Part shown: positions 5,769 through 61,830 of the stretch, in pieces
Position numbering within the stretch: position 1 is the first letter of the stretch
Layout of the letters: the number at the start of each line of letters is the position of its first letter
NCBI GenBank assembly: GCA_951406725.2
Contig: OX597818.1
Location: 48,670,001-48,734,000, forward strand
Direction: 5' to 3'
DNA length: 64,000 bases
DNA from: Octopus vulgaris
Taxonomy: Eukaryota
Notes under the pieces: generated by a model
Database searches by the model: none
The model's input: only the letters and a program-made list of their open reading frames with translations
Told to the model about the DNA's origin: nothing
Program-made: the position numbers and the translations under genes

Positions 5769-6318
5769 CAGTGCTTTTCAAACTTTTTGCTGGAGCGGAA
5801 CCCCAAGGAAACATTCCACTGGCTCAAGGAACCCCTGTGCAATAATTTAATAGTCTTATGCACACACATAGTGTTGGCGAACCTCAGGAAGCATGGAAGT
5901 TTTGAAGGATGCAGCGCTCCGACAACCAACAACTGATGCCGGCAGTTTGTTCCATGCGAGTTGCTGAAGTATGGAACAAACTGCCGGCATCAGTTGTTGG
6001 TTGTCAGAGCACTGCATCCTTCAAAACTTCCATGCTTCCTGAGGTTCGCCAACACTACACTTGATTTTCTCCCCTCCATACACACACAAGCATGTATCTG
6101 ACTCATACATTGTTCGCTTTCCAGACATTTCTACATTACTGCATATACTTTATATGCACTTTCTGACAAGTTGTGGTGCACCTGAGCACTGTGTGCAATA
6201 ATTTCATTATTATTATATCTGCACAGGAGAATTAAAAATTACTGCCGATTTTAGCAATTTTGTAACTTCTTGCGGAACCCCTGGACTGTACTGGCGGAAC
6301 CCTGGTTGAAAACCACTG
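5769..6318. mobile_element. hAT-type MITE carrying a nested CR1 fragment
   Basis: CAGTGCTTTTCAA...TTGAAAACCACTG TIRs; 8-bp TSD ATATAGTA at 5761-5768 and 6319-6326. Confidence 0.9.
5869..6215 (+). mobile_element. 5'-truncated CR1-group LINE 3' end with an inverted duplication at its 5' side
   Basis: 5958-6215 matches 12941-13195; 5869-5955 is the reverse complement of 5971-6057; (ATT)n tail. Confidence 0.9.
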
Positions 6319-11330: not shown

Positions 11331-11789
11331 AAGATATGTACATACACACACACACACACACACATAAAGTAAGCAGAAAATGGAGAAATGTTGACCAACA
11401 ACAATTGACTTACATCAATTATTATTTTTTAATTCAATACAAAAAATAGACTGCATTCCGTCAAACAGCTGTTTCTGCTTCTGATGTTATATGGTATTGC
11501 CATTGATATGTTAAAAAATAATATTCATCATATTTGGTAATAAAATCAATCTGGAACATGGATAAATAATATGCGTGTGTGTGTGTGACAGTAAGTTGCA
11601 AATTTTTTTTAATATTTTGTCAGAGTTCACTTTAATTCTGCTCACTGTGATGTCAAAAATCAAACAAGTTATAAATGCATTAGAGTTACAATAAGAACGG
11701 GATGGAAGGTGATGAACTGGCAGAAATGTAAGCACACCAGGTGAAATGCTTAGTGGTATTTCGTCTGTCTTTACATTCTGAGTTCAAAT

Positions 11790-13195
11790 CGCCAAACTGA
11801 TGGAATCCTGTATCAGAGAAACCCTCTGGAACTTCTGGAAGTCTCACAGCCTCATCCAGCCTTCACAATTCGGATTTATTCCTAACTCCAGCTGCTGTAA
11901 TCAACTCATCGAGTTTCTTGAGGATGTTACCCAAATCACTGATTGCGGATCCTGGGTGGATGTTGTTTACCTGGACTTTGCTAAGGCTTTTAACTCTGTG
12001 CCACACAAAAGACTTATGGTGAAGCTTTCTGCGTTGGGTGTAAGAGACGAACTCTATAACTGGTTAAAGTCCTTTATTTTCGGCCAAAAAGAGGTTGTCA
12101 CAGTTCTAGGACAGCACTCTTCGCCCTATGAGATGACATCTGGTGTGCCGCAGGGATCTGTTCTTGGCCCCCTTTTATTTGTTGCATATGTTAATGACAT
12201 AGATGCCAACTTAAAGAATGCCACAGTGCTGAAATATGCAGATGACATCAAGCTGTACCTCGAAATAAAGAGGTCAAATCCTATACACTATAGATCTCTA
12301 TTGCAAGCAGACCTGGACACAATGCAGCAGTGGATCATGGACTGGCAACTCAAGCTGGCTGTGGACAAATGTACCACCATGCATTTTGGGAGGAGAAACC
12401 CAGCGTCCACCTACTCCCTCCACAACACTAGTCTCAAAAAGTCTTCATGTGAACGTGACCTGGGTGTTATTGTTGACAGTGATTTGCGTTGGACAAAACA
12501 CATCGCTAAAATTGTCAAGAAGGCTGAGGGTGTCTTGGCATCACTCACCAAATCCTTTGTGAGCCGCTCTCCGGCTATCTATCTGCGGCTTTATATAGCT
12601 ATGGTAAGACCTCAACTGGAATTTGCATCACCGGTCTGGAACCCCTATCTTGCCCAGGATATCAATCGTCTGGAAGCTGTTCAGCGACGTGCAACCAAAA
12701 GAATACCCTCCATCAGGTATTTGCCATATCCTGAACGCCTTACTTCCCTGGGCATGGACACATTGAAACTCCAACGTCTGGCAGCTGACTTGGCAGACAT
12801 CCATAAAATTATCAACCATCGTACAAACAATAACTCTGAGCACCTTTTTAAACTCCACCCATCTAACACCCGTGGACATATTTACAAAATAAGAAAACAG
12901 CACAGCTCCCATGACTTCAGGAAACATTTTTTCACGCTGAGAGTTGCTGAAGCATGGAACAAACTGCCGGCATCAGTTGTTAGTTGTCGGAGCACTGCAT
13001 CCTTCAAAACTTCCATGCTTCTTGAGATTCGCCAACACTACACTTGATTTTCTCCCCTCCATACACACACAAGCATGTATCTGACTCATACATTGTTCGC
13101 TTTCCAGACATTTCTACATTACTGCATGTACTTTATATGCACTTTCTGACAAGTTGTGGTGCACCTGAGCACTGTATACAATAATTTCATTATTA
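11790..13195 (+). mobile_element. 5'-truncated CR1-group LINE inserted in a family A SINE
   Basis: RT ORF, ~150-bp 3' UTR and (ATT)n tail. The host SINE breaks after GAGTTCAAAT (11789) and resumes near 13203. Confidence 0.92.
11800..13047 (+). CDS. Reverse transcriptase domain and C-terminus of CR1-group LINE ORF2 (no endonuclease; 5' truncated)
   Basis: QFGF, YLDFAKAFNSVPH, SGVPQGSVLGPLLF, KYADD, ERDLGV, VRPQLEFASPVWNP motifs; open for 415 codons. Confidence 0.9.
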   Translation: MESCIRETLWNFWKSHSLIQPSQFGFIPNSSCCNQLIEFLEDVTQITDCGSWVDVVYLDFAKAFNSVPHKRLMVKLSALGVRDELYNWLKSFIFGQKEVVTVLGQHSSPYEMTSGVPQGSVLGPLLFVAYVNDIDANLKNATVLKYADDIKLYLEIKRSNPIHYRSLLQADLDTMQQWIMDWQLKLAVDKCTTMHFGRRNPASTYSLHNTSLKKSSCERDLGVIVDSDLRWTKHIAKIVKKAEGVLASLTKSFVSRSPAIYLRLYIAMVRPQLEFASPVWNPYLAQDINRLEAVQRRATKRIPSIRYLPYPERLTSLGMDTLKLQRLAADLADIHKIINHRTNNNSEHLFKLHPSNTRGHIYKIRKQHSSHDFRKHFFTLRVAEAWNKLPASVVSCRSTASFKTSMLLEIRQHYT

Positions 13196-20870: not shown

Positions 20871-21599
20871 CACTGATAGGTTTCAATTAATAACTTCCTT
20901 TATTTTACAAATAGATGCATGAAATTTTGATACAATATAATGGAAATTAATATGCACAAGTCAAATTTTGCAACACCACTACATCACATATGAAAAATGA
21001 CATTGCTTAAATGGCAGCCATTTTCAGCTTTGCACGCCCATGCTCTTTCCAAATCTAGGCTAGTCAAGTCTGGGGAACGTGAAGGCCAGTTGACATTGCT
21101 GTAGTGGGAGATTATTCTCTCTCCAAAGCAGTGCTGTAGCAACTGCATTGTTTCTCTTGTTGTATGAGAAGTTGCTCCATCTTGCTGGAACCATGGGTGA
21201 GGTCTTCTTTGAATGACCTTTATGTTCACCAGACTTGACTAGCCTAGATTTTTTCTTGTGGGGATACCTGAAAAAGAGGGTTTATGTCAACAAACCAGAG
21301 ACTCTGGTCTAACTGAAGGAGAACATCAATAGAGAAATCAGAGAAGTGGGGTCTGAAACTCTTGAGGGTGTTATGGTGCATGTTTTGGAAAGAGCACGGG
21401 CGGGCATAACGAAACCGAAAATGGCTGCCATTTAAGTGATGTCATTTTTCATATGTGATGTAGTGGTGTTGCACAATTTGACTTGTGCATATTAATTTCC
21501 ATAATATCCTTTATATTGTATCAAAACTTCATGTATCTATTAGTAAAATTAAGGAGTTATTAAAATTTGAAACTCATCAGTGACTTTTGGGACACCATG
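20871..21599. mobile_element. Tc1/mariner DD41D (rosa-like) fold-back derivative made of two inverted 3' ends
   Basis: Minus strand: FQQDGATSH...WPSRSPDLTSLD with 41 residues between the aspartates. Plus strand: PDLTSLDFFLWGYLKKRVY...ENGCHLSDVIFHM. About 180-bp outer inverted arms. Confidence 0.85.
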
Positions 21600-21614
21600 T
21601 ATATATATATATAA

Positions 21615-23067
21615 GAGAACTGGAAACGATTCTTGGACGATTGTTTTATTCTCTGGAATGAAAACACAGATAAACTCTTAAAATTTAAAAACCTATTGAA
21701 CAGCATAAACCCAAATATACAGTTCACAATGGAATACAACCAAAAGGAGCTCCCGTTCTTGGATATACTAATTAAAAAAATTAACCTTAAAATAGAAACA
21801 GACATTTTCTACAAAGCCACAGACGCCAAACAATACCTTCTCTTTAATTCATGCCACCCAAGACACACTAAAACAAACATCCCCTTCAACCTTGCAAGAA
21901 GGATATGCACAATAGTGTCAGAACAAAATACCAGGAACTTCAGACTGCAAGAACTCAAAAGCACCTTAATTGACAGACATTACCCAGCTCAACTCATAGA
22001 GGATGGGATCAGACGTGCAACAGAAATCAACATAGAAACTTTAAGAAAAGTTCAACACAACAACACACCTTCCCCGAAAATACTACCTTACATATCTACA
22101 TACAACCCCAGAAACAAAGAAGCTTTCACCATCATCACCTAGAATTTACCAATACTTCATAAAAACCCCAAATTAAAGGAAATTCTAAACTTACACCAAA
22201 TCATTAAAAGCTACAAACAGCCTAATTCACTTAAAAAGATTCTCACAAAGGCAAAATTATCTTCTGAAATTACGGATGCAAAAGTAAAAAAATGTGGTAG
22301 ATCGAACTGTGCAACATGTCCAAACCTGCTAGAAGGATCAGAATTCTTCTTTAAAGAGGGACAGAAATTCAAGATCAAATCTAACTTTACTTGTGCCTCT
22401 GAAAACATAATTTATGTCATAAAATGCTCGGGCTGCCACCAAGACTACGTAGGGTCCACGGGACTATCACTCAGACGTAGATGCACACTGCATTGACAAC
22501 AGATTGCATTCCCAGAATATAGAATGATACCTTTTAGTGAGCACATTGAGAAATGCGCAAAGCAACTACAACCACAATTTTTAATCTTTCCATTTTACCA
22601 ATGTGCTTTCGGATCATCAACACAAATTAGACTAAACAAGGAAACATTCTTCATTGAAAAGTACAAACCCAGACTCAACTATCCAAACATAATAATACAG
22701 AGAAATTCACACTAAGAGAAAAAGGAAAAGAAAATTTTTTTAAGCAATTATCTCCCTTACACCGGAAGAAATCACGCACTACCTTCCCTTATTTAGAACT
22801 CTCCGTAGCAAAAAAACAAGCATAACGCTATTAAAGATAAACATTACGTCGCAAGAAATTTGAAGAGCTAAATGCGAAACCGGTCTTTCTTTAAAAATTA
22901 TAAAATTATGTCATTATAAGAAAGGAAAAAAATTTTTCCAATATTCTCCAGACATATTGACGCAAATATATATATTCTTTAACATTTAAGCCTTCTGTCG
23001 TTTTTTCACTCTTTACTATTTTCTTATATATTCACCCACGTGCTTTCACAAACAAACTTTCTTATCT
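21615..23067 (+). mobile_element. 5'-truncated Penelope-like retroelement (RT C-terminus + GIY-YIG endonuclease, pLTR with hammerhead)
   Basis: WKRFLDDCF, LPFLD, YKATD..QYL..SCHP; then C..C zinc motif and NIIYVIKCSGCHQDYVGSTG..RRR..H. In-frame stops near 22140 and 22494. Flanked by (TA)n on both sides. Confidence 0.92.
22853..22891 (+). ncRNA. Minimal hammerhead ribozyme motif in the Penelope pLTR
   Basis: aagaaa-t-TTGAAGA-GC-taaat-GC-GAAAC-cg-GTC-tttctt: 6-bp stem I, palindromic stem III (ACCGGT), GUC site, C3 to T. Confidence 0.7.
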
Positions 23068-23089
23068 ATATATATATATATATATATAT

Positions 23090-31768: not shown

Positions 31769-31799
<31 letters not shown>

Positions 31800-32000
31800 A
31801 GAAAATGGAGAAACATATCTTAATCAATGATCAACTACCAGATAATACCCAATCACATAATTTATTAAACCACTATGCATGAACATTAAGGTTAAACATA
31901 ATAATATAGAACAAAACAATGTACATGAAAGAGTAATATAATACAATAAGTACAGTATGTATAAGTGAATATAAATAAATACAAATATAAATATAAACTA

Positions 32001-32129
32001 AATCTTACAGCTGTTTCGGCCATGCAGATATGGGTGTCTCATTATGCTCATATTAGCCATGTGTGATAGGTCAATATGTAGTTGTAAATGAGACACTTAC
32101 AAAAATATCCCAAGGCCTCTTCAGAGATT
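32001..32129 (-). ncRNA. Type I hammerhead ribozyme (inverted twin of 32418-32546)
   Basis: Reverse complement of the plus-strand motif with all core nucleotides intact. Confidence 0.82.
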
Positions 32130-32417
32130 ATGAAATACAAACTAACTCTTGACTTTGTATATCTGCATTTGAATATGAATATGTGTATGTTTTCTATATT
32201 GTAATATCATAATATTATGTTGACCAACTGTAACATTGAATATAGAACATATGTATGTATATTGATATATATTATTATGTATATGTATATATATATGTAT
32301 AGGAATATGGGTATATGCACTCATATGTATGTGTATATTATATATTATGGGTATGTACCCACTCTTGTATGGGTGTACCTCCTCTGTTATTCATATTTAA
32401 TTTAGTTTGTATTTCAT

Positions 32418-32546
32418 AATCTCTGAAGAGGCCTTGGGATATTTTTGTAAGTGTCTCATTTACAACTACATATTGACCTATCACACATGGCTAATATGAG
32501 CATAATGAGACACCCATATCTGCATGGCCGAAACAGCTGTAAGATT
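32418..32546 (+). ncRNA. Type I hammerhead ribozyme with greatly extended stem II
   Basis: AATCT-CTGAAGA-GGCC-[92 nt, containing GTGTCTCATT/AATGAGACAC and CATATT/AATATG stems]-GGCC-GAAAC-agct-GTA-AGATT. Confidence 0.85.
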
Positions 32547-32955
32547 TAGTTTATATTTATATTTGTATTTATTTATATTCACTTATGCATACTGTACTTA
32601 TTGTATCATATTACTCATTCATGTACATTGTTTTGTTCTATATTATTATGTTTGACCTTAATGTTCATGCGTAGTGGTTTAATAAATTATGTAATTGGGT
32701 ATTATCTGGTAGTTGATCATTGATTGAGATATGTTTCTCCATTTTCTTATTTTGTATTATTAATTTGTGGTAAAACATTTTACCTTTGCCCATATAATAC
32801 AGTGAACGAATTAATTGCATCGCAGTTCTTAACATTTATGTATTAACTTTATTGGGTGCTTCACTAGCAGTATATTGGATATATGTTATCCCATGGAGGG
32901 TTGCACTTACAACCCCTATCTCAATTTGCATATATATATATATATATATATATAT

Positions 32956-34472: not shown

Positions 34473-35041
34473 CCTGGTTGTAGTCATTGCTGCGACTGCT
34501 GGCAATGCTGTTCTTAATAGATCAGGCTTTCTGTATAATTTAAGCCATGGAAATATTTTTAGTTTCTTTTTCACCTTTTTTGAAAATTTATTCTATATTT
34601 TGCACCAATATTATTTTTTTAATATGATTATCTATTTTGAAATCATTCAGTGTTTTTTTAAAAATTTTAAATCTTTTTTTTCTTCTTCTTCTTCTCAAGA
34701 AGAGGTTACGAGAATGTTTTCTTTGCCTTTTTTCTAGGTGAAGGATAGGACATGTAAGAAAAAATTGTTCTCTAACCTATTTACTCAAATCTCACAAAAC
34801 AACACAGGAAAACAGTTTGTGGTGCCAAGTTACAATGCGTGTTTAGGCAAATGAAAAAAATAATAAAATAAAACGTAAAAAAGCAAACAAAAACATTTCA
34901 TGTCAATTCTTCATAAGTATGCAGATAAGTTAACGCAAAGGCATTGTTTCAAAATGACACACACATACATACATGCATATATGGATTCATACACACATGT
35001 TTACATGAATAATTCATAAAAGAGATATACACTATGAAAAA

Positions 35042-35179
35042 GGTGGCGAGGTGGTAGAAACGTTAGCACGCCGGGCGAAATGTGTAGCCGTATTTCGTCT
35101 GCCGTTACGTTCTGAGTTCAAATTCCGCTGAGGTCGACTTTGCCTTTCATCCTTTCGGGGTCGATTAAATAAGTACCAG

Positions 35180-35180
<1 letters not shown>
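35042..35180 (+). mobile_element. SINE family A, 5' part
   Basis: Head, B-box and core, truncated at (TA)n. Confidence 0.85.
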
Positions 35181-35211
<31 letters not shown>

Positions 35212-35413
35212 AGTAGTTGAATGAATTATCTTATTAAGGATAATTTGAATTAACCGATACCTGGGTAGCAAATTCACATCAGCAAAAACACAGTTGAAGT
35301 TACGTGCCTAGGGCATAGATTACGTGCTTTCGTGTGGAAATTTGTATGTTTATTTTGAAAATATAAATATATGAAAGAATGGAGCTGAACGACGAATTAA
35401 CAAAATTCCTTTA

Positions 35414-35496
35414 TTTTCGACATATGTTTCGAAGGCTGCATATTCCTAATTGCAAAGGAATAAGGAGTACATTATGCCGCTTTCTCATCAGGAAAA
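35414..35496 (-). ncRNA. Type I hammerhead ribozyme (inverted twin of 35546-35628)
   Basis: Reverse complement copy with intact core. Confidence 0.82.
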
Positions 35497-35545
35497 GCAA
35501 GGAACTTATTTTTTGTGCATTTTGATGTTGACATAAGTTCCTTGC

Positions 35546-35628
35546 TTTTCCTGATGAGAAAGCGGCATAATGTACTCCTTATTCCTTCGCAATTAGGAAT
35601 ATGCAGCCTTCGAAACATATGTCGAAAA
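35546..35628 (+). ncRNA. Type I hammerhead ribozyme
   Basis: TTTTC-CTGATGA-GAAAGC-[loop with TATTCCT/AGGAATA hairpin]-GCCTTC-GAAAC-atat-GTC-GAAAA. Confidence 0.85.
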
Positions 35629-36079
35629 TAAAGGAATTTTGTTAATTCGTCATTCAGCTCCATTCTTTCATATATTTATATTTTCAAAATATATATATAT
35701 ATATGTATGTGTGTGTATATGTTTGTGTGTCTGTGTTTGTCCCCCCAACATCGCTTGACAACTGATGTTGGTGTATTTACGTCCCCATAACTTAGTGGTT
35801 TGACAAAAGAAACCGATAGAATAGGTACTAGGCTTACAAAGAATAAGTCCTGGGTGTTGATTTGTTCGACTAAAGACTGAAATAAGTAAAAATAATATAA
35901 GAATAAAAGAATACCAGTTTGAGTCAAATTTTTTTGTATTTCAAGCTTTAATTGACAGTTCAAACAAAAGTGTTTTTTCATCAAAATATATCACATTATA
36001 TTCTATTGTCTGTTGCCAATCATTGTGAAAAAAGCTCAATTCCATGCTTATACCACTTGGCTGGTTTAGAGGCAAAACA

Positions 36080-49168: not shown

Positions 49169-49213
<45 letters not shown>

Positions 49214-49217
<4 letters not shown>

Positions 49218-49515
49218 CAAGGAAAAATTGTAAAAATGCAGAATGCTAAATTGAAAGAAAATTTTAATGAAATGAGAAATTGATAAAATATATAAATATA
49301 TATTAATTCAACCGGTTTTCGTCATAATGTGACTTTTCACATTATGTGAAAAGTCACATTATGACGAAAACCTGTTGAATTAATATATATTTATATATTT
49401 TATCAATTTCTCATTTCATTAAAATTTTCTTTCAATTTAGCATTCTGCAGTTTTACAATTTTTCCTTGCTTATCATTTCTCCACGTGCGGTCAACACAAC
49501 CCCACCATTTATTGA

Positions 49516-49518
<3 letters not shown>
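49214..49518 (+). mobile_element. Fold-back cassette (~125-bp arms, almost no spacer) with truncated hammerhead-like motifs and a short tail, in (TA)n
   Basis: 49214-49341 versus 49344-49473 inverted. Centre reads TGAAAA-GTCA-catta-TGAC-GAAA-ACCGGT. Tail contains CCACGTGC as in the Penelope 3' end at 23036. Confidence 0.8.
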
Positions 49519-60696: not shown

Positions 60697-61830
60697 GGGA
60701 TCTTTTCATTTCCAAGGCCTGTTTTTTCAGATTTTTCCTACTTAACCAAACAATTTGAAACTTCGTATACTGGTAGAATGTGTCAAAAGAAAACATAATT
60801 GTAAACCAGAATGAAAACGGAATTGTAATTTCAAAGTTTAACGTTGTTTAATAATTAGAATTTTAACCAATGGTATTCGGTCTTTCGGCTTCATATTATT
60901 TACTCCGTCTCAATAGATGTAAACGGCTATTTTGCTGATGTATTTAACATACATGAAATGTAAACACCCGGTTACCGTATTCCTTCAGTTTCTATTCACA
61001 TTTTTTAAATATATTATTAACTAACTTATATATTAAACTTATATATTATATAACTAACTTAGTTTTTGTAAATTTTCGTATATTTTTAGTGATTTTTATT
61101 CCTTACTTTATTCGTGTAACTTTTATTTCTGTAACTTTTTATCTTTGGCAATCTTTCGTATGTGTGTGTGTGTATGTATGTATGGCCGATTCAGTGTTTA
61201 CATTATTTTGAGTTAAAACGAAAGATTACCTTTGCCATGTAGAAAATAATGAGGTTGACTCAATGGAATAATGACAGTGATCGAAGATATAGACAAAATT
61301 TTTTTTGGTAATCTTTCGTTTTAACTCGAAATAATGTAAACACTGAATCGGCCATACACACATACATACACACACACACATACATAGATACATACACACA
61401 CACACATACATGCATACATACATATACACATACACCGAGTAAAAATTTCAGTTATCTCTCTCTTTCACACATTACTCTCTCTGTCTCTTCACACACACTA
61501 ACAGAAGTACTTCACTTACACAACATACTTTCTGTCTCTCACACCCCATCAAACACACACACACGCACACAAAACACAGACCTACGCACAGCTGTCTACG
61601 TCACAAAATAGCTTTCTACGTCACACTAAGATAATGCAGTTAATTATTTCAAATGAAAACAAACAATACGATTGGTTAAAATTCGCAGATTTAATCTACC
61701 CTTAAAGTTATAAAATACATTTTTCTCAAATAAACAAGTTGAAATTAGTGTTTTCTTTTGAGACACTCTACCAGAATACGAAGTTTCAAATTATTTAGTT
61801 AACTAGAAAAATCTGACAAAACAGGCCTTG
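60697..61830. mobile_element. Large member of the GGGATCTTTTC MITE family, right terminus clipped, with a second internal inverted repeat (61181-61356)
   Basis: CAAGGCCTGTTTTTTCAGATTTTTC..GAAACTTCGTATACTGGTAGAATGTGTCAAAAGAAAAC is mirrored at 61750-61830. Confidence 0.83.

Follow-up and report, generated by a model that had tools for sequence, protein, structure and literature searches.

Minimal type I hammerhead ribozymes with a palindromic helix III are carried by the pseudo-LTRs (pLTRs) of Penelope-like elements (PLEs), where they occur in opposite-strand pairs 100–700 bp apart (PMC4209133, Cervera and De la Pena 2014); cephalopods go unnamed in the parts of that paper used here. PLE insertions have been described as comprising an inverted, 5'-truncated copy and a tail at one end, with (TA)n targets (PMC8557442), and the head-to-head arrangement was the most frequent one in Adineta Pen2a (PMC3846280). 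In the case of Poseidon_Ac from Anolis, the protein, a predicted dimer, cut and extended both strands of AT-rich DNA in vitro, and the tail is delimited by the two internal sites from which reverse transcription began (PMC11167929). The formation of the inverted pair is not demonstrated in the sections of that work drawn on here, and the origin of inverted copies and one-sided tails in PLEs is a question named in both PMC8557442 and PMC11167929. The fold-back cassette described below, which taken as a single locus is a decaying transposon remnant, provides a data point for that question.

The cassette lies within a 64,000-nt stretch of DNA that was analysed as a whole (hereafter, the window), which is AT-rich animal DNA, rich in microsatellites and SINE-like repeats. 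Its features are listed in Table 1, together with its flanks and related elements. The anatomy reported in a preliminary description of this DNA was borne out, namely 159-nt arms with 2 mismatches (pairs 35390/35652 and 35454/35588), a 23-nt spacer, a 142-nt one-sided tail and (TA)n on both sides. The short end of the right copy is found 68 nt beyond the predicted ribozyme cut site, and no target-site duplication was readable within the (TA)n. With its head-to-head truncated pair, one-ended tail and (TA)n target, the cassette bears the structural marks of an EN+ PLE insertion. The reading towards which we lean, with moderate confidence, is that it consists of two differently 5'-clipped copies, placed head to head in (TA)n as the product of a single event, by a PLE enzyme and from the pLTR of a coding PLE.

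Table 1. Positions of the cassette, its flanks and related elements within the window.
Feature	Coordinates	Strand	Remarks
Left arm	35351–35509	-	159 nt; 5'-clipped copy, sense on the - strand
Right arm	35533–35691	+	159 nt; 5'-clipped copy, short end meeting (TA)n
Spacer	35510–35532	+	23 nt: 2 junction bases and ~21 nt native to the right copy (family upstream sequence)
One-sided tail	35209–35350	-	142 nt (boundary +/-1); extends the left copy at its 3' end
Type I hammerhead motif, right copy	35546–35628	+	Predicted cut after C35623
Type I hammerhead motif, left copy	35414–35496	-	Predicted cut after 35419
(TA)n target microsatellite, left	35180–35208
(TA)n target microsatellite, right	35690–35704		(TG)-rich repeat next
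Left flank, SINE-like repeat B	35040–35180	+	Head only; B has many copies in the window
Right flank, SINE-like repeat A	35716–35860	+	Second half only; first half absent here
5'-clipped Penelope-like element	~21612–23070	+	RT thumb region, CxxxxCxxC linker, GIY-YIG-type domain; two stops
32-kb cassette	31794–32929		352-nt arms, 7 mismatches, 256-nt spacer, 176-nt tail on the right
Third fold-back, (TA)n-flanked	49213–49517		130-nt arms, 2 mismatches, 1-nt centre, ~44-nt one-sided tail

The family was examined by comparing the non-repeated unit of the cassette (35208–35532) with three public contig runs, in which 2326, 938 and 1084 contigs matched, most of them at 90–99% identity. Summed depth reached 2 × 10^5 to 10^6, most of the single pieces listed having a depth of only 7–82; contig depth is not copy number, and the abundance points to thousands of copies or more. 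Among the loose contig ends listed (18 of 207), those behind 35509 in run X2 (11 contigs) and run X4 (6 contigs) equalled the reverse complement of the spacer and continued beyond it. The spacer is therefore the family's own upstream sequence, in sense with the right arm; some 30 nt of such upstream sequence are visible in the contigs. Since the spacer is native to the right copy, this copy spans ~35512–35691, and the left one runs from 35509 to 35209, the two being joined at their clipped 5' ends. The right copy includes ~21 nt absent from the left, and the left includes 142 nt absent from the right. Given the sequence unique to each, neither copy can have been made from the other through a hairpin; this speaks for two copying events and against hairpin self-copying.

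These features bear directly on an alternative in which the inversion would have arisen because one cDNA or antisense transcript primed itself or folded back, or through later repair, instead of from two primed starts. Self-priming on an antisense template is the account of head-to-head PLE inversions preferred in the part of PMC3846280 drawn on here, which derives it from palindromic junctions, and the minority alleles shared by the two arms (see below) suit it in implying one template. However, no palindrome is present at the cassette junction, where the 23-nt spacer is unpaired. Moreover, a single hairpin self-copy predicts a nested arm and a loop contiguous with the longer copy, whereas in the cassette it is the tail-less copy that continues into the loop; one fold-back is therefore insufficient, as it cannot supply the tail and an extra template switch would be needed. 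We consider this route improbable.

The contigs also addressed whether fold-back junctions are made anew at each insertion or belong to a fixed, propagating unit, a point raised in the preliminary description. They indicated that junctions are made at insertion, as four other joints were found (35289/35374, 35315/35509, 35361/35509 and 35411/35482) and the junction of the window was rare in run X1. There, the spacer had a depth of 458 and the greater part of the arm one of 245,000–997,000, a difference of ~500- to 2000-fold; this drop is partly an edge effect on a short stretch, but is not expected of a fixed fold-back unit. The joint 35411/35482 was present in both X2 (organism A) and X4 (organism B), which would correspond either to an older insertion common to both or to a single species that had been labelled in two ways. 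Another view, that of a twin-ribozyme RNA which is fixed, propagates or is selected by the host and whose arms homogenisation keeps similar, would accommodate arms that are identical at 157 of 159 positions with both motifs intact, as well as the recurrence of the same layout in sequence-unrelated cassettes. This view is nevertheless largely refuted by the variable junctions and the rarity of the window's own; in addition, each arm has its own CpG-type change, and the 484-nt RNA forms a single hairpin that buries the motif, so that we regard it as very unlikely.

Minority alleles of the family were common to both arms in 3/3 informative runs, at positions 35357 (88–92% with the other base), 35385 (77–91%) and 35416 (61–66%), and hence both arms derive from one template or source locus. 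Unique sequence in each arm, combined with rare alleles common to both, allows two-strand priming to be told from hairpin self-copying. The left-arm base at 35454 is private, as ~100% of the family differs, and the right-arm base at 35652, which is not among the listed family variants, is presumably private as well. Each arm has one such change, in both cases a CpG-type transition, as expected of decay following insertion but not of homogenisation still under way. Accordingly, of the two explanations offered earlier for the near-identity of the arms, a fairly recent insertion stands and homogenisation does not. An assembly or library artefact producing the fold-back was also weighed: no read or contig spanning the exact locus was seen, and the raw-read run X24 was uninformative (0 of 12.9 million reads matched). 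Against it speak the two differences between the arms, which are of CpG-decay type and run in opposite directions, the unique sequence of each arm, and the presence of similar joints in independent runs, one of them (35411/35482) in two. We give an artefact hardly any credence.

The outer end of the tail was queried with positions 35194–35290 against runs X2, X3, X5 and X10. In 4/4 runs, depth extended beyond the tail and into the TA tract, and the loose ends at 35196–7 led into mixed flanks (agreement 0.62–0.64). No continuation of the element past 35209 was found among the 24 of 85 loose ends listed, and no joint was found in the four runs. The long end (35208/9) is thus a 3' end shared across the family and joined to (TA)n; the position of the short end is known from this one copy. 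The tail was also present in run X10, whose library type was guessed as RNA.

Under the favoured reading, a GIY-YIG nuclease would cut both strands of an AT-rich target, and each resulting 3'-OH would prime reverse transcription of the same RNA, or of RNA from the same source locus. Measured from the ribozyme cut site, the two reverse-transcription starts would be 68 nt and 210 nt further along. Early termination of each cDNA, followed by joining of their ends in repair, would place between the two flanks an antisense copy begun at the long start and then a sense copy reaching to the short start, which is the order observed in the cassette, and would leave the stretch separating the starts as the one-sided tail. 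The hammerhead would be inherited cargo, acting as a dimer in the source transcript via its palindromic stem III, and the copy would have decayed neutrally since insertion. As the tail is four times as long as those published, the two starts can readily be distinguished.

Two observations go against a pLTR origin, namely that the tail lacks the start of an ORF in any frame over its 142 nt, and that no linked RT or nuclease ORF was found in the scans run. No such ORF tied to the cassette family was encountered in either the pattern scans or the 64-kb window. In a second reading, possible though held tentatively, the same two-strand PLE insertion took place but the RNA was a non-coding retrozyme-type unit, perhaps circular, that borrowed the PLE enzyme. 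The 323 nt present contain no ORF, all three sense frames being closed across arm and tail, and a type I motif with a 2-bp palindromic stem III suits animal retrozymes as presented in the portions of PMC7229834 and bioRxiv 10.64898/2026.07.22.740005 used here. Furthermore, the known length plus the visible upstream sequence still falls short of the 350–390 nt of mussel units. Set against this, there is no head-to-tail repeat at the cassette locus, no joint in the four runs, no extension of the element beyond the tail in the 24 of 85 loose ends listed, and no joint from tail to upstream sequence (18 of 207 loose ends listed). These missing joints are weak evidence, because in a high-copy family joints may go unseen when contigs are short. 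On balance, the pLTR of a coding PLE was ranked above the retrozyme-type unit as the source of the RNA.

The flanks stem from two different repeats, a fact unexplained by clean insertion. Elsewhere, 14 of the 15 other copies of repeat B continue into its 3' half and 0 into (TA)n, and 12 of the 13 other second halves of repeat A have the first half upstream. The mismatch between half B and half A suggests a deletion of DNA at insertion or a pre-existing chimeric site. In a more speculative scheme, which we find rather doubtful, a PLE RT-nuclease dimer would make two copies of a single RNA, one on each strand of a break, beginning at two fixed points separated by 142 nt; it could even do so across two separate cuts and remove the DNA in between, which would here have reached from the middle of SINE B to the middle of SINE A. 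In this scheme, the RNA may be a non-coding circular hitchhiker. Were this so, thousands of cassettes would record PLE inversion and tail formation, and would cause small deletions.

The hammerhead-type motif announced in the preliminary description proved genuine, with a descriptor match in each arm. The right copy has the CUGANGA...GAAA...UH core, the three helices and the open helix I of a type I hammerhead. It comprises a 5-bp stem I (35546–35550/35624–35628), the core strings CUGAUGA (35551–35557) and GAAA (35612–35615), a long and irregular stem II (35558–35611) with 10 of its 12 first positions paired, and a stem III of 2 bp within the palindrome ACAUAUGU (35615–35622). The descriptor matched four times in the 64-kb window, at two loci with two arms each (this cassette and the 32-kb one). 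By contrast with these matches, 0 of 100 dinucleotide shuffles gave a motif with a palindromic stem III, and a mean of 0.02 motifs per shuffle was obtained when the palindrome was not demanded. Rfam yielded no hammerhead match at the gathering score, which is probably attributable to the long stem II insert and the 2-bp stem III. Its matches at E<=10 were generic hairpins (miRNA and snoRNA models) and were rejected.

Nine sites of the 83-nt motif were variable (>=5%) in the family, and none of the nine fell within the 19 core and stem III positions (P=0.08). Among the variants in stems, two keep G-U pairs, one mends a stem II mismatch and one, which is common, breaks a stem II pair. The proposal that covariation supports a real ribozyme is consequently weak: two unrelated families do share the fold, but the lack of core variants within the family is not significant, and the common variant disrupts stem II.

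According to the folding model, the monomer favours an inactive fold, the active one accounting for ~1e-5 of the ensemble. A double hammerhead formed via the palindrome was computed at -31.2 kcal/mol, as against -19.4 kcal/mol for two monomeric ones, with a cofold minimum of -38.3 kcal/mol; these energies ignore the catalytic core and tertiary contacts. The 484-nt cassette RNA folds as a single hairpin (-291.8 kcal/mol, z -35), and on either strand the complement is transcribed ahead of the sense motif. As read-through RNA folds into one long hairpin, ribozyme activity at the locus is unlikely, and the cassette is probably not a working twin ribozyme where it stands and is predicted to be silent. 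The earlier term "twin" has to be read as one sense motif on each strand, and not as two carried by a single RNA. Hammerhead activity in the source transcript is plausible; published PLE hammerheads cleave weakly, as dimers or with protein (in the passages of PMC4209133 and PMC11167929 used here). As a caution, such "twin ribozymes" are insertion by-products and, if transcribed, cassettes of this type would be sources of double-stranded RNA rather than working ribozymes.

Other elements of the window provide context for the favoured reading. The 21-kb PLE is flanked on both sides by (TA)n and has a decayed hammerhead-like motif (~22855–22890) after the ORF, with a palindromic stem III. Its protein relatives, from molluscs, carry RVT_1 and GIY-YIG. 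Pfam returned 0 matches for the two pieces of its ORF, so its identity rests on the domain marks and these relatives. The CxxxxCxxC linker is a mark of the Neptune/Nematis type in the consulted text of PMC8557442. Although from a different family than the cassette, this element shows that PLE machinery and target preference exist in this genome. For a retroelement protein of the window, close named relatives include those of Octopus bimaculoides and Argonauta, at 59–66% identity, and the SINE-like repeats resemble those of octopus, which points indirectly to a probable octopus source for the DNA. The 32-kb cassette interrupts a single SINE-like repeat A at its internal (TA)n and has the two halves of that repeat as its flanks. 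The 49-kb fold-back has lost the 5' half of its hammerhead-like motif, both copies being clipped within stem II. A one-sided tail was observed in 3/3 (TA)n-flanked fold-backs examined in the window, with lengths of 142, 176 and ~44 nt.

Further inverted structures differ in kind. An 87-nt near-perfect fold-back with a 15-nt centre (5869–6057) is not TA-flanked and lies in what appears to be the 3' end of a LINE-type element; by eye, the RT ORF at 11782–13047 ends in similar sequence. Inverted repeats at 307–544, 20935–21507 and 61158–61379, with arms of 73–96 nt, look like MITEs or ends of DNA transposons and showed no hammerhead motif in the scan. The window also includes an intronless 257-residue ORF on the + strand (1283–2056) that matches Pfam Arv1 (E 1.4e-30).

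Relatives of the cassette with long flanks were sought by pattern scans, which returned 0 relatives with the ribozyme pattern in metagenome contigs and 0 relatives in prokaryote genomes and in viral contigs. Two metagenome loci (L001 and L002) had only the 23-nt search word in common with the cassette and no PLE protein, and were dismissed as chance. In these animal-like contigs (L001, positions 890–1000, and L002, the same repeat), a hammerhead-like string occurs ~900 nt from the 23-nt word that matches the tail end. No significant similarity linked the cassette family to either the 21-kb PLE or the 32-kb cassette, the best blastn hit against the latter having E 0.013 over a 13-nt AT-rich word, in agreement with the initial statement that the two cassettes are unrelated in sequence. 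In the literature searched, no paper dealt with this family or with octopus hammerheads as such; the family may already be listed in Repbase, Dfam or a supplement. Likewise, no paper on twin or two-strand priming as the cause of PLE inversions was found in the openly accessible literature searched.

Compared with the described systems, each taken from the parts of the sources used here, the motif resembles the pLTR hammerheads of PMC4209133 in its 4–5-bp helix I, enlarged helix II, G10.1-C11.1 pair and short palindromic helix III, and in its many dispersed copies and opposite-strand pairs 100–700 bp apart. It differs in that stem II encloses a 54-nt structured insert and that no unpaired base is found between 9 and 10.1. 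Like the 323 nt present in the cassette, animal non-LTR retrozymes (PMC7229834; bioRxiv 10.64898/2026.07.22.740005) are non-coding type I hammerhead repeats of low GC with pLTR kinship; they are, however, defined by head-to-tail tandem units and circular RNA, and no tandem units were seen at the cassette locus.

With the EN+ PLEs Neptune, Penelope/Poseidon, Naiad and Adineta Pen2a (PMC8557442, PMC3846280), the cassette shares 5'-truncated, head-to-head inverted copies, a one-ended tail and a (TA)n or AT-rich target. It deviates from them in a tail of 142 nt rather than 30–40 nt, in copies too short for coding sequence and in flanks from two different repeats. In Penelope/Poseidon, the pLTR and tail include the ORF start (PMC11167929, PMC3846280), which the cassette's tail lacks. 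The layout of Poseidon_Ac (PMC11167929) is similar, with a hammerhead upstream of two reverse-transcription starts that bound the tail and an AT-rich target, but its ribozyme overlaps the ORF start and its starts are close together, whereas those of the cassette would be 142 nt apart. Thus, while the family itself is uncatalogued or unlocated and its tail is unusually long, the architecture of the cassette is one already published for Penelope-like elements.
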